A stretch of DNA of 64,000 nucleotides, taken from assembly GCF_041886205.1 (NCBI RefSeq), contig NZ_CP169029.1; one strand, written 5' to 3'. The notes below the pieces were generated by a model. It was not told the origin of the DNA and did no database searches. It was given only the letters and a program-made list of their open reading frames with translations. Source of the stretch: Escherichia coli. GTDB taxonomy: Bacteria > Pseudomonadota > Gammaproteobacteria > Enterobacterales > Enterobacteriaceae. This document shows, piece after piece, positions 44,590-47,710 of the stretch; position 1 is the stretch's first letter, and each line of letters opens with the position of its first letter. The translations under genes and the position numbers were made by a program.

Positions 44590-44976
44590 TTATACAATTA
44601 TCTGATTGATTTTTAATATATCTTTTCTTAAATCATCGTTAATATCTGACGGTTCTAGCTGGTTTATAAGTTGCCTTATTTGGGTAAAGGTACTTTTCTG
44701 ATCTTTTAGATCTTCTCCTTTTATCGTTGATAAAGCTGCAATTAGTTCACCATCGTAATATTCACCCGCTAACGGCTCTTTAGTTAGAACTTCCAACACT
44801 CTTGGCATCAACTGATCAATACATAAATTTTGTCGGATAGCGCGGCAAAGATCTTCCACTGTTAACTTTTCAAGAGGCACATCTATGATACGTTCGAACC
44901 AGAGTTCAAGCGGTGATTGTTGCTCAGGCTCTTTTGTCATATTGATGTTTCCAATCAATTTACGTAAGGTAATCAT
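44590..44976 (-). CDS. cdiI: Orphan CdiI immunity protein, cognate to the GYGI-tailed orphan toxin
   Basis: 128-aa ORF whose ATG overlaps the toxin stop (ATGA) at 44973..44976. Confidence 0.6.
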
Positions 44977-45908
44977 ATTCCATATCCTTTCAAGGCTGAT
45001 TCTATTTTATTAATAGCATCTGTTGCTCTGCCATACGCAGCCTGAGCTTCAGGATTGTTGACGTTTTTCAACGTATCCGCATGATTTCTTAATCCTCTGA
45101 GCGTATTTTGCATTTCCTGCATATGATCCCAATATCCTCCATTCTCTTTAGGAACTGGCTTACCATCCATATCCTTGAGAGTTCCAATAATATCATGATC
45201 TTTCAGAGCATTTTTTATAGTGTTATCGATCTTCTTAATCGCACTTTCTTGCTTCTGATTAAGCTTATCTACAGGTTTTTCATTTTGCTGCTTAGGATCA
45301 TTTTCCGATGGTGGTGGTGTACCGGTTCCTGAGCCGGAACCGCCCAGTTCTACTTTTTCCGCATCGGTCAGATCTTTACCGATATTCGGATTCGAGGCAG
45401 CCCCGGAACCGTACTTATCATGCAACGAACTGAGATACTTAGTAGTGATCTCATCATTACCCATCATTTGCAGGGTAATCAGATGCTCCAGTTCATCGGA
45501 GGTCATCCTGTCGGCCATATCCTTGACTGCCGCCCCGGCAAGCCCGGCCATGCCCGCTTTCGCCCCGATTTCTAGCAACTGCTCTGCAACTTTAGTCCTG
45601 CAAGGTGCTGCGACCGCACAGCCTCTGGCAACCAGACTCAGCGCATTATTCTCAACAACGTTCTTCCCGGCACCAGCTCCAGCAGCCGCGCCAGCCACAT
45701 CGCCACTGGCAATGCCGCCGGCCATACCCGCTGACAGCGTTGCCAGCGTGCTTACAGTTTGCTTCTGATCTTCACTGAGGTCTGACTGCTTCACGCCCGG
45801 ATACAGCATTCCGATCGCTCTGGCTGCCAGTTCTCCTGTTGCTGAGCCGACAAAGGCGCTATTTTTCTGTACCACCGACAGCGTGGCATTCACCACTGCA
45901 TGAGTTCA
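44973..45908 (-). CDS. Orphan cdiA-CT module: pretoxin/VENN region plus C-terminal toxin ending in GYGI (UPEC536-type, CysK-dependent tRNase class)
   Basis: Frame opens directly after a stop with no ATG; ...[14 protein letters not shown]... VENN motif; pre-VENN homology to the full cdiA; C-terminal ...ALKGYGI. Confidence 0.7.
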
Positions 45909-45930
45909 TGTGGGACATCTGACGGACAAA

Positions 45931-46452
45931 TTATTTCACAAATGTCCGCTTAACGCGCTCAGATACAATGAAATAGGGGATCCAAATACAGGCACTAAAC
46001 ACGTTACGTACCAATGGTTTTACCGTATCAAAAACATAAGGCACGTCTAAATAGATGTGGCCCAGCAGTAAATCGACAGCAACAAATATCGTTCCTATCC
46101 CAATAAGTGCAATATAGTGATGCGGCAATTGACGCTTTTTACGAAAAAACAAGCTACTAACGAAAATTCCATAAGAAAACATACCAATGAAAGCAAAGAG
46201 TTCAAAAAAGAGGATCCCTTTTTGTGCGTGACCGATCTGCGCAATATTTTCCATTAAGAATCGTATAGTGAAATTAATAGAGATCATATTGGCGAGAATT
46301 GTTAAAACCAGTCCTATTGCTGGCAAGTATAGCCAACCACGAATTTTTTTAAATTCGCGTTCTTCACAAACAGCGCAAAAGTCACTGTCCTTCAGTGCTT
46401 CATTCTCACATTGAATACAAAGTCTTATTTTCTTCTCTGCATCATGGCTCAT
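45931..46452 (-). CDS. Membrane protein with N-terminal Cys4 zinc-ribbon and 4 predicted TM helices (immunity-like?)
   Basis: CIQCENE...CAVCEE motif followed by four hydrophobic helices; ATG with SD AGGTGA. Confidence 0.5.
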   Translation of the reverse strand: MSHDAEKKIRLCIQCENEALKDSDFCAVCEEREFKKIRGWLYLPAIGLVLTILANMISINFTIRFLMENIAQIGHAQKGILFFELFAFIGMFSYGIFVSSLFFRKKRQLPHHYIALIGIGTIFVAVDLLLGHIYLDVPYVFDTVKPLVRNVFSACIWIPYFIVSERVKRTFVK

Positions 46453-46466
46453 CTGATAATCACCTA

Positions 46467-46718
46467 TTATTTATACGGGAAAAGTTGAAGATCATGCTGT
46501 TTATTTTCGTCTGTATTGTCACCATTCAGCATATGACCCGGTCCCCGGGTACCATCGCGACTCGGATCACGTACAGCACACTGTTCCCGTGAACCTTCAC
46601 AACCACCACCGGTATCCAAGCTATTATCATTCCCGGTATCCTTACTGGCATTACCTGTAGCACCGGCTATTGCTGCTGCCGTATTAGCTGCTGTTTCAGT
46701 GGCTATCATATTCAGCAT
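46467..46718 (-). CDS. Small Gly/Ala-rich protein (83 aa), possible toxin remnant or peptide toxin
   Basis: MLNMIATETAANTAAAIAGATGNASKDTGNDNSLDTGGGCEG...; frame opens right after the upstream immunity gene stop. Confidence 0.3.
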   Translation of the reverse strand: MLNMIATETAANTAAAIAGATGNASKDTGNDNSLDTGGGCEGSREQCAVRDPSRDGTRGPGHMLNGDNTDENKQHDLQLFPYK

Positions 46719-46752
46719 ATTGTTTCCAGCAACTATCTTAAGTTCCAATTAA

Positions 46753-46995
46753 TCATTTCTTTAGCAAGTTGGCAATCCATAACATTAAACCTGTAAAGCT
46801 ACCAATGTATATACCTATCTTACCTAAAAATAAAATAATGTTCGATGAAAAAGACACTGGTATTCCTTTATAAAAAAAGAAAAAAAATTCCCCGCATACA
46901 TATAAAATCGCCCCTGTTAGAAAAATTGAAACCATGCTGAATACAATAAAAAAAACAGAGGAAGAATGAATTTTAGAGCTTTCATTTGCCACCAC
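46753..46995 (-). CDS. cdiI: Orphan CdiI, small two-TM inner-membrane immunity protein (EC93-like size and topology)
   Basis: 80 aa with two hydrophobic helices; GTG start overlapping the 3' end of the upstream toxin ORF. Confidence 0.55.
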   Translation of the reverse strand: MVANESSKIHSSSVFFIVFSMVSIFLTGAILYVCGEFFFFFYKGIPVSFSSNIILFLGKIGIYIGSFTGLMLWIANLLKK

Positions 46996-47710
46996 CTTCC
47001 TGCTTCATTTTGTACTCTGTATACTTACCTCCGGCTTCTGAAGTGATACTACCACCAATGTCACCAATTGAGCTGGGGACATTGCTTGGTTTCATTTCTT
47101 TTGAGATTCCCAAATCTCCTTGGACTTCAGTAACACTTCTCAACTCAGAATTAAACTTCGGATCCCAACCACCTTTCCACCAGTTTGCCCCTGCATTAAC
47201 ACCCCATGAAAGTCCTTTACCAAGGCCATAGCCAATACCCGAACCGGTACCATTGATAAGTGCACCTGACAATGGATCTTTGTCGTCAATCCAGTTACCC
47301 AGTGCCCCTCCGGCAGCATTCCATCCAACGGTTCCTTTCCAGCCCTGCCCCATGGTGATTACATTGACCCATCCTGCAATGATTGCATTTTCAGGATCAA
47401 CTGAACTATCTACCATGTAACCAATTCCTGCATTTGCACCTGTGCCAAGAACCCACATGGCCTGAGCACCGCCAGGTAAGAAAGCTACACTACCAGTGGC
47501 CAACGCTCCGGCATACGCTTTATTGACTGCTTCTCCTCGCTTACAGGCTTCACCGGAAGGATTATCACTACAGGAGAGAACATCAGCGCCATGCTCTCTG
47601 GCTTTTTCCGTCTGGAGCCATTCACTGCCACCCAGCAGGTTATTCTCAACAACAACTCTTTCCGCCGCAGGTTGCTGTGATAAAAAAGTTTTCCCTGTGC
47701 TTTCAGCGCG
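46982..47710 (-). CDS. Orphan cdiA-CT module: VENN plus glycine-rich, probably membrane-acting toxin
   Basis: Frame opens after a stop at 47711..47713 with no ATG; ...AAERVVVENNLLGGSEW...; toxin rich in Gly, Trp and hydrophobic stretches. Confidence 0.7.
   Translation of the reverse strand, partial: RAESTGKTFLSQQPAAERVVVENNLLGGSEWLQTEKAREHGADVLSCSDNPSGEACKRGEAVNKAYAGALATGSVAFLPGGAQAMWVLGTGANAGIGYMVDSSVDPENAIIAGWVNVITMGQGWKGTVGWNAAGGALGNWIDDKDPLSGALINGTGSGIGYGLGKGLSWGVNAGANWWKGGWDPKFNSELRSVTEVQGDLGISKEMKPSNVPSSIGDIGGSITSEAGGKYTEYKMKQEGGGK

Follow-up and report, generated by a model that had tools for sequence, protein, structure and literature searches.

The stretch of Escherichia coli DNA analysed here (64,000 nucleotides, hereafter the window) carries a cdiBAI locus and, at 47710..44590 downstream of its cdiB, cdiA and cdiI genes, a series of orphan cdiA-CT/cdiI modules; all of these lie on the minus strand (Table 1). 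The cdiB gene falls within an alignment of 97.1% identity (window 61386..57303) to the locus of strain CFIAFB20190157, where it is annotated as a member of the ShlB/FhaC/HecB family. The full-length CdiA protein matches PT-VENN (1.7e-17) and DUF6862 in Pfam, and its CT belongs to the E. coli 3006 (EC3006) type, matching PDB 6VEK_A over 337 aa (E 4e-215) and also 6CP8_A. The CdiI protein encoded next to it agrees with the CdiI of PDB 6CP8_C at 160 of 161 residues. Among the loci fetched, only the sister locus of CFIAFB20190157 matched the full length of the spacer that follows this cdiI; its other matches are one weak hit in a further locus (70%, 130 nt) and short ones starting just 5' of VENN. 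An NCBIfam search with nine proteins returned the IS66 fragment as its sole match. Strain JML285 is 100% identical to window 30000..42120, yet its CDI locus differs and is degraded.

An earlier note on this DNA had recognised orphan cdiA-CT/cdiI modules downstream of cdiBAI: at least two ORFs that open after a stop codon without an ATG and contain VENN, each followed by a small overlapping ORF. This identification is correct. The two toxin ORFs are found as described, and the small ORFs behind them have 80 and 128 codons and are preceded by Shine-Dalgarno sites. In addition, the six-frame translation of the window contains VENN exactly three times, always on the minus strand, at 49374 (cdiA), 47650 and 45656, against 0.22 on average, and never more than 2, in block-shuffled sequence. 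Chance occurrence of VENN in unrelated frames, which the earlier note had named as an observation that would speak against the modules, is thus not what the census shows: the motif is confined to cdiA and the two orphans.

Table 1. Features of the cdi locus and its orphan modules, in order of transcription (window coordinates)
Feature	Position	Strand	Remarks
cdiB, outer-membrane transporter of two-partner secretion pair	58153..59919	minus	588-aa ORF
cdiA, full length, 3259 aa	48361..58140	minus	From ORF list; VENN at residue 2923 (49374..49363)
cdiI of main toxin, 161 aa	47879..48364	minus	ATGA overlap with cdiA stop codon
Spacer between cdiI and orphan 1, 168 nt	47711..47878	minus	No recognisable cdiA sequence
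Orphan 1 (proximal) cdiA-CT, 242 codons	46982..47710	minus	47710..46985 without stop; stop-to-stop ORF; VENN 47650..47639
Orphan 1 immunity gene, 80 aa	46753..46995	minus	GTG start after AGGAAGG; overlaps 3' end of toxin ORF
Chimeric remnant ORF, 93 codons	46467..46748	minus	No VENN; parts matched to two places in OkiPb01692
DUF2569 membrane-protein gene, 173 aa	45931..46452	minus	N-terminal Cys4 motif; Pfam DUF2569 1.4e-28
Distal orphan cdiA-CT, 310 codons	44973..45905	minus	45905..44976 without stop; opens after stop; VENN 45656..45645
Distal orphan cdiI, 128 aa	44590..44976	minus	ATGA overlap with toxin stop; AAGGA 8 nt ahead of ATG
IS66-family transposase fragment	44182..44589	minus	NCBIfam transpos_IS66, partial, E 3.7e-31

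The two orphan modules

The ORF of orphan 1 has no in-frame ATG, GTG or TTG ahead of VENN, and its earliest start-type codon is a TTG at 47503. Its CT consists of 19% glycine and has no match in Pfam, NCBIfam or PDB. Relatives are nevertheless found at the ends of full-length genes: strain SCU-101 has a full-length CdiA whose C-terminus shares 66% aa identity with the CT (E 4e-104), and in Z142-6 the CT of the full-length cdiA matches the first 392 nt of orphan 1 at 88.8% identity. The exact CT (at least 95% nt identity) was met solely as an orphan. It is also homologous to several glycine-rich CTs of OkiPb01692 and, at 29% identity (E 7e-11), to the o10-position CT of the O157:H7 strain FRIK944, which presumably corresponds to the published EC869 o10, judging by its position before the annotated CdiA-o11 and by its two-TM partner. 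EC869 o10 depolarises the membrane and is paired with a two-TM CdiI (PMC7858069). The immunity ORF of orphan 1 has two hydrophobic segments (about residues 8-42 and 53-78, Kyte-Doolittle), and the orphan 1 CT is predicted to act on the membrane.

In SCU-101, an 80-aa ORF overlaps the end of the full-length cdiA, with the same length and layout as the orphan 1 immunity ORF. The latter is intact in the window and in CFIAFB20190157, and its homologue in OkiPb01692 is frameshifted at a T-run. A poly-T frameshift in the window's own copy, suspected from an out-of-frame ATG, was rejected, the 80-codon frame being unbroken.

The distal orphan has no in-frame ATG ahead of VENN, and a GTG at 45896 lacks a Shine-Dalgarno site. 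Pfam reports PT-VENN (4e-16) and, weakly, Ntox28. Its toxin agrees at 226 of 227 residues, including the C-terminal GYGI, with PDB 5J5V_B, the crystallised CdiA-CT of UPEC 536, and its immunity protein agrees at 128 of 128 with the CdiI of 5J5V_C. By its sequence, the distal CT is thus a UPEC 536-type CysK-activated tRNase; the CysK dependence of this toxin type has been described (PMC5562914). The UPEC 536 pair (PDB 5J5V, 5J43) and the orphan pair share the CysK-binding GYGI tail and the IS66 remnant; they differ in that the CT in UPEC 536 is fused to a full-length, exported CdiA, whereas in the window it is detached and without an initiation signal. Window 45806..44144 is 99.0% identical to the 3' end of the UPEC 536 cdiA with its cdiI and IS66 remnant, and the IS66 fragment moved together with the module. 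The same module sequence ends full-length cdiA in hundreds of E. coli genomes (UPEC 536, UTI89, NU14 and others at 99.9-100%). The search for strains with these CTs fused to full-length cdiA, which the earlier note had proposed, therefore succeeds for the distal CT itself in UPEC 536 and UTI89 and for relatives of the proximal one in SCU-101 and Z142-6.

The two orphans differ in what precedes VENN. Pretoxin sequence around the motif, attributed to both in the earlier note, is present in the distal orphan; the proximal one has no Pfam match, and its similarity to other CT modules begins at most 15 nt 5' of VENN. According to Poole 2011 (PMC3150448), some orphans have no upstream homology, so we do not regard PT-VENN (PF04829) as strictly required.

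Sequence between the modules

The 93-codon ORF behind orphan 1 is made up of two parts. In OkiPb01692 the same module is followed by a 122-aa ORF (locus 9938..10306), the 5' part of which is the counterpart of 46748..46586; on the other side, 46547..46453 matches the spacer upstream of the DUF2569 gene in that strain (locus 5845..5940). Judged from these matches, the ORF is a recombination or deletion scar and no toxin fragment.

The adjoining DUF2569 protein is hydrophobic in three to four segments, and its gene has a Shine-Dalgarno sequence, AGGTGA, 7 nt ahead of the ATG. The gene has the same place, just ahead of the o11 slot, in the E. coli orphan arrays of CFIAFB20190157, OkiPb01692, FRIK944, M8 and JML285. 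In FRIK944 and OkiPb01692 it lies about 264 nt past a CT that is already paired with its own two-TM immunity ORF. In the window it neither directly follows nor overlaps a cdiA-CT ORF, its predecessor being the VENN-less scar ORF. A third, VENN-less CT fragment (46748..46470) with DUF2569 as its immunity gene was considered and rejected: the ORF joins the 5' end of an unrelated 122-aa ORF to spacer sequence, and DUF2569 elsewhere comes after a CT with an immunity ORF of its own. The segment 46748..45931 is accordingly a scar plus a DUF2569 gene, not a third CT/immunity module.

In at least six E. coli lineages, the DUF2569 gene separates a glycine-rich CT/immunity module of the ionophore type from the VENN slot that comes next. 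We regard it as distinctly improbable that the protein is a working part of the CDI array and no mere passenger, acting as a second immunity factor or as a decoy for membrane-acting CdiA-CTs; if it were, DUF2569 would add a class of CDI accessory gene that has not been described before.

Relatives, junctions and recombination

Orphan modules of this kind have known counterparts. The boundary motif of Rhs proteins is PxxxxDPxGL, in place of VENN for CdiA. Orphan rhs-CT/rhsI modules resemble the window in that displaced toxin tips and immunity genes lie downstream of the main gene with a conserved motif as boundary (PMC3150448), but the delivery protein family and the motif are different, and the window contains no Rhs sequence. 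Much closer is the EC93 orphan cdiA-CTo1/cdiIo1 (Poole 2011, PMC3150448), in which a start-less VENN ORF lies directly downstream of cdiBAI and is followed by a cdiI with a start codon and Shine-Dalgarno site. Both this pair and the distal orphan of the window belong to the UPEC 536 type. However, the 536-type module of the window is the distal rather than the first orphan, standing behind the glycine-rich module and the DUF2569 gene, and its pre-VENN stub is an o11-type/536-type mosaic; in addition, the main toxin is EC3006-type in the window and a pore-former in EC93.

The O157:H7 array of EC869 (o1-o11), as seen in FRIK944 and OkiPb01692, shares the order of elements: a glycine-rich CT with hardly any sequence ahead of VENN, then a two-TM immunity ORF, a spacer, DUF2569 and a pre-VENN stub. 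In contrast to that array, the window has the UPEC 536 tRNase CT, its cdiI and the IS66 remnant in place of the o11 DNase CT with its cdiI, the glycine-rich CT is a different family member from the o10-position CT, and there are two orphans instead of eleven. On this evidence, the orphan cdiA-CT/cdiI array that ends this E. coli class I CDI locus on its 3' side, behind an EC3006-type toxin, is very probably genuine.

The point of replacement can be located. Three- to five-way alignments place a breakpoint in the distal pre-VENN segment at 45774..45768, upstream of which the sequence is that of the EC869-type o11 orphan of FRIK944 and downstream of which it is that of the UPEC 536 cdiA. In particular, window 46000 to 45775 is near-identical to the DUF2569-to-o11 junction of FRIK944. 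CFIAFB20190157 was dropped as the left parent of the mosaic, since the o11-type sequence of FRIK944 fits far better. At the breakpoint only 5-6 bases are identical between the candidate parents, and within the 70 nt around it the figure is about 11 at most; the reading frame is kept across the junction. Strain M8 carries a similar natural mosaic with an independent second pre-VENN breakpoint.

A chimeric assembly that joined two CDI loci within repeated sequence could in principle produce such a junction. Among 5,426 complete E. coli genomes, not one has the whole 3.3-kb array, and the junction lies within a repeated gene family, both of which would fit an artefact. The shared bases are, however, too few for an assembler to bridge, the frame is preserved, and M8 shows a similar mosaic broken at another position, so that we consider an artefact exceedingly improbable. 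The array was built through recombination that fell on the VENN-coding sequence or a short way 5' of it. The proximal module has its boundary at VENN itself, and in the distal orphan an EC869-o11-type pre-VENN stub gives way, about 112 nt ahead of VENN, to a UPEC 536-type cdiA 3' end with its cdiI and flanking IS66 remnant.

Since the distal segment is a mosaic, exchange did occur in the past. Whether the resident cdiA can be a partner depends on the similarity that remains. The earlier note had held that the distal pre-VENN segment is homologous to cdiA and provides a recombination substrate. The proteins are indeed homologous (residues 2838-2930 of the resident CdiA align over 93 aa with 45% identity, E 2e-17), but at the DNA level identity is only 61% across 140 nt and no exact run exceeds 12 nt, which makes the segment a poor substrate. 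When all of the array is compared with the final 2.5 kb of cdiA, the longest perfect match reaches 14 nt. For RecA to recombine efficiently in E. coli, about 20-30 bp must match perfectly. The modules can act as a reservoir of toxins. With so little shared DNA identity, homologous reloading of the resident cdiA in this genome should be rare; more probable partners for exchange are incoming cdiA alleles with a better match, or other orphan arrays.

These figures bear directly on the proposal that the array is an active switching cassette, in which RecA-dependent pre-VENN recombination routinely reloads cdiA with an orphan toxin; toxin switching by recombination with the upstream cdiA is the mechanism of the earlier note. 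The distal orphan does retain 83 pre-VENN codons homologous to CdiA, and the mosaic alleles of the window and M8 show crossovers in this segment. Orphan Rhs toxins, too, are reportedly activated by recombination in Salmonella, in work attributed to Koskiniemi in 2014. In Yersinia pestis Microtus, cdiA appears to have acquired an orphan by this route (PMC3150448). On the other hand, both the 12-nt run and the array-wide 14 nt fall below the RecA requirement, and the event would cost the cell its cdiI as well as the proximal module and so make it sensitive to its siblings, as argued in PMC3150448. Routine switching is therefore unlikely in our estimate. Less easily set aside, though still on the unlikely side, is the view that the orphans are fossils of C-terminal displacement, in which new CT/cdiI cassettes enter at VENN and the old tips are pushed downstream, functionless and decaying. 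A displacement model was put forward for rhs (Jackson 2009, as cited in PMC3150448), and the short pre-VENN remainder of the proximal orphan, the scar ORF and IS fragments inside and beside the array, the frameshifted immunity homologue in OkiPb01692 and the degraded cdiA with orphans in JML285 all agree with it. Against this view, the four orphan ORFs of the window are all intact, the distal pair equals functional proteins except for one toxin substitution, and the immunity genes retain start codons and Shine-Dalgarno sites. Moreover, the orphan CdiI of EC93 demonstrably protects. Displacement accounts for the origin of an array and is compatible with a present use of its immunity genes.

Expression and biological meaning

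No terminator-like site was predicted on the minus strand at 44100..48500. A promoter scan of the array gave 11 sites against 7.9 ± 2.5 expected, which neither supports nor excludes internal promoters; the term promoter-less, used in the earlier note, goes beyond what sequence can show. Note that the orphan toxin ORFs (242 and 310 codons, against 3259 residues in CdiA) have neither a start codon nor a ribosome-binding site, and are devoid of the delivery part of CdiA, which comprises about 2900 residues. In EC93, the orphan is co-transcribed with cdiBAI and its CdiI is functional and protective, whereas the orphan CT is undetectable (PMC3150448). By analogy with what has been published for EC93 and EC869, transcription from the cdiBAI promoter would read through the array, and its toxin fragments would be neither made nor exported. 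The immunity proteins would be made and would shield the cell from neighbours that deploy the matching toxins. The proximal toxin, if its resemblance to the o10-position CT is a guide, may depolarise the inner membrane.

The arrangement as such has been known since 2011 (Poole 2011), and the established picture is unchanged by this locus. The simple idea that a resident cdiA recombines with its own orphans fits the locus poorly. The junctions in the window and in M8 constitute a clear sequence-level record of orphan slots refilled by pre-VENN crossovers, even where homology is poor. For the strain itself, the array predicts resistance to the UPEC 536 tRNase and to a putative membrane-acting, glycine-rich toxin, besides its own EC3006-type toxin.

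Organisation of the resident locus and its orphans

All relevant features of the CDI locus and the orphan array lie on the minus strand (see table). Between 61386 and 45739 the window follows the CFIAFB20190157 chromosome (E. coli) collinearly, with 97-98.8% identity outside a block at 57303..56354; the annotation of that strain gives the three genes as a ShlB/FhaC/HecB transporter, cdiA and a hypothetical protein. The block, on the minus strand at about cdiA codons 280-595, gives no BLAST alignment to the CFIAFB20190157 cdiA, which is elsewhere 97-99% identical, and it may be a second recombination patch. 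From VENN (residue 2923, base 49374), the motif bounding the toxin C-terminus (CT), the resident CdiA matches PDB 6VEK_A over 337 residues (E 4e-215), and the 161-aa protein is identical to the CdiI of PDB 6CP8_C at 160 of 161 positions; we take 6VEK and 6CP8 to be the E. coli 3006 toxin/immunity pair.

Downstream of cdiI, the earlier note described ORFs that open after a stop codon without an ATG, contain VENN and are followed by a small overlapping ORF. Stop-to-stop translation confirms this for both orphan CT ORFs, and each overlapping ORF has a ribosome-binding site. Upstream of VENN, the proximal CT ORF lacks ATG, GTG and TTG; the distal one lacks ATG and has a GTG at 45896 without a Shine-Dalgarno site. 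Chance occurrence of VENN does not account for the pattern: six-frame translation of the 64 kb contains it exactly three times, in cdiA and the two orphan CT ORFs, against 0.22 on average and never more than 2 in shuffles. On these features the locus qualifies as an array of orphan cdiA-CT/cdiI modules.

Features in the window and DUF2569 copies at other E. coli loci
Feature	Position	Strand	Remarks
588-codon ORF	59919..58153	minus	precedes cdiA ORF
cdiA	58140..48361	minus	3259-codon ORF
cdiI	48364..47879	minus	161-codon ORF, overlaps cdiA stop codon
Proximal orphan CT ORF	47710..46985	minus	242 codons stop-to-stop, VENN at codon 21
Proximal immunity ORF	46995..46753	minus	80 aa, GTG start, AGGAAGG before start
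Scar ORF	46748..46470	minus	no VENN
DUF2569 gene	46452..45931	minus	173 aa, Pfam DUF2569 1.4e-28
Distal orphan CT ORF	45905..44976	minus	310 codons stop-to-stop, VENN at codon 84
Distal immunity ORF	44976..44590	minus	128 aa, AAGGA 8 nt before ATG
IS110-like transposase start	43909..44148	plus	inside 4.4 kb stretch
595-aa ORF	40728..42515	minus	inside 4.4 kb stretch
459-aa ORF	39307..40686	minus	mostly inside 4.4 kb stretch
DUF2569 copy, CFIAFB20190157 (L001)	15430..15951		
DUF2569 copies, OkiPb01692 (L004)	252..758; 5940..6461		
DUF2569 copy, L006	15032..15526		
DUF2569 copy, L007	3549..4070		
DUF2569 copy, M8 (L008)	4549..5070		

Toxin types of the two orphans

The distal orphan protein matches Pfam PT-VENN (4e-16) and, weakly, Ntox28. 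From VENN to its end it shares 226 of 227 residues with the UPEC 536 CdiA-CT (PDB 5J5V_B), with one Thr-to-Pro change and the terminal GYGI present, and its partner is identical to the CdiI of PDB 5J5V_C at 128 of 128. Judged by these identities, the distal pair is a toxin/immunity pair already crystallised. As a tRNase, the UPEC 536 toxin stays latent until CysK takes up its C-terminal tail in the active site (PMC5562914), and the founding orphan example, in EC93, is of the same toxin type (PMC3150448). At the DNA level, 45806..44144 and UPEC 536 share 99.0% identity across the cdiA 3' end, cdiI and the IS66-transposase remnant that follows. Some 4.4 kb (39775..44143) separate this remnant from a VasL-domain remnant; in UPEC 536 the two are almost adjacent.

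The proximal CT has no match in Pfam, NCBIfam or PDB. Its resemblance to other CT modules starts at most 15 nt 5' of VENN, which places the module boundary at VENN itself. Glycine makes up 19% of this CT, and related Gly-rich CTs (66%, 59%, 38% and 29% amino acid identity) occur in the long orphan array of OkiPb01692, several of them with a small hydrophobic ORF (76-91 aa) behind. In O157:H7 FRIK944, the CT in the o10 position is 29% identical to the proximal CT (E 7e-11) and directly precedes a DUF2569 gene and the NCBI-annotated CdiA-o11. In EC869, CdiA-CT o10 depolarises membranes and is paired with a two-TM immunity protein; SecY, PpiD and YfgM aid the import of the toxin (PMC7858069). From this relatedness, the published o10 activity and the two-helix immunity ORF, we infer that the proximal orphan encodes a membrane-acting toxin and a membrane immunity protein. 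The pair is an uncharacterised member of the known Gly-rich CT group. Note that its immunity ORF contains two long T-runs (about T8 C T7; 46860..46900, minus strand), possibly a slippage-prone site; the homologous ORF of OkiPb01692 is frameshifted there (L004, about 9760..9800), and the reading frame is kept in the window and CFIAFB20190157.

The search proposed earlier, for strains with these CTs fused to full-length cdiA, succeeds for the distal orphan, which is the end of cdiA in UTI89, NU14, UM146 and many others (99.9-100% identity). For the proximal CT only relatives are so fused: the CdiA C-terminus of SCU-101 is 66% identical (E 4e-104), with an 80-aa two-helix ORF overlapping the cdiA stop codon as in the window, and the full-length cdiA of Z142-6 has a CT that shares 88.8% identity with the first 392 nt of the proximal CT, but the exact module (at least 95% nucleotide identity, full length) is found only as an orphan among complete genomes.

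Assembly and exchange of the modules

In alignments, the 5' part of the distal orphan (46000..45775) is nearly identical to the DUF2569-to-o11 junction of FRIK944, including a 3-nt deletion, and from 45768 onward the sequence is identical to UPEC 536 cdiA. The parental type switches within GAAGA, about 112 nt before VENN, where identical runs common to both types reach at most about 11 nt; such tiny identity at the join argues against a misassembly. The o11-type/536-type mosaic of M8 is independent, has another CT and switches about 30 nt 3' of the window's breakpoint. The same slot has thus been refilled more than once by crossovers in the short pre-VENN segment. The M8 orphan (L008 5096..6010), which follows DUF2569, has an AENN Gly-rich CT behind its pre-VENN mosaic.

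Of 5,426 complete genomes, none has the whole array, and 3 have the cdiI-to-pre-VENN-stub part of it (98.7-98.8% identity). In CFIAFB20190157 a third orphan (L001 16155..17045) lacks VENN and fuses a pre-VENN stub directly to the middle of a CT like the main EC3006-type one; ORFs of 168 aa and 127 aa come next, and the orphan is of the internal-deletion type. Over 30000..42120 the window and E. coli JML285 have the same sequence (100% identity). The CDI locus that JML285 itself carries is degraded, with a cdiA pseudogene, other orphans and an IS100 insertion. The island carrying 30000..42120 is a mosaic.

The pre-VENN segment of the distal module (44973..45908) had been proposed as homologous to the resident cdiA and hence as a recombination substrate. 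The homology holds for the protein (45% identity, E 2e-17), but the DNA, 61% identical over 140 nt with a longest exact run of 12 nt (the VENN codons), would make a poor substrate. Between the whole array and the last 2.5 kb of cdiA the longest exact match is 14 nt, and efficient RecA recombination in E. coli requires roughly 20-30 bp of perfect identity. Recombination between resident gene and orphan would also remove cdiI (PMC3150448). For these reasons, a swap with better-matched incoming alleles is more plausible than reloading of the resident cdiA by its own orphans.

Present role and the DUF2569 gene

Neither toxin ORF has initiation signals or a delivery region. Both immunity ORFs are intact, and prediction over 44100..48500 gives no terminator-like site on the minus strand. 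In EC93 the cdiBAI transcript extends over the orphan region, and the cells produce a protective orphan CdiI and no detectable orphan CT (PMC3150448). By analogy, the array would be read as part of the cdiBAI transcript, its CdiI proteins would be made and protective, and its CTs would not reach a detectable level. Most likely, then, the array now provides additional immunity and keeps its CTs as a silent reservoir.

Between the orphans, the scar ORF begins as the 5' end of a 122-aa ORF found behind the same module in OkiPb01692 and, past about 40 unaligned bases, matches the spacer that precedes a DUF2569 gene at another point of that array. This join is a scar rather than a toxin fragment. 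At its N-terminus the DUF2569 protein has a Cys4 motif, and it contains three to four hydrophobic segments. As a cdiI the gene fails on position, with no CT directly before it. In CFIAFB20190157, OkiPb01692, FRIK944, M8 and JML285, too, a pre-VENN stub comes right after it. Where it recurs in E. coli CDI orphan arrays, the DUF2569 gene with Cys4 is always just upstream of VENN or a pre-VENN stub, often behind a Gly-rich CT with a two-TM ORF, and in L004 a VENN-bounded module directly cuts one copy short. DUF2569 is almost without mention in the literature; a single paper among those searched names it.

The combination of an EC3006-type main toxin, a Gly-rich orphan, DUF2569 and a 536-type orphan in the o11 slot is absent from the complete-genome set. 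Its parts and this kind of locus are already known; the way they are put together is new.
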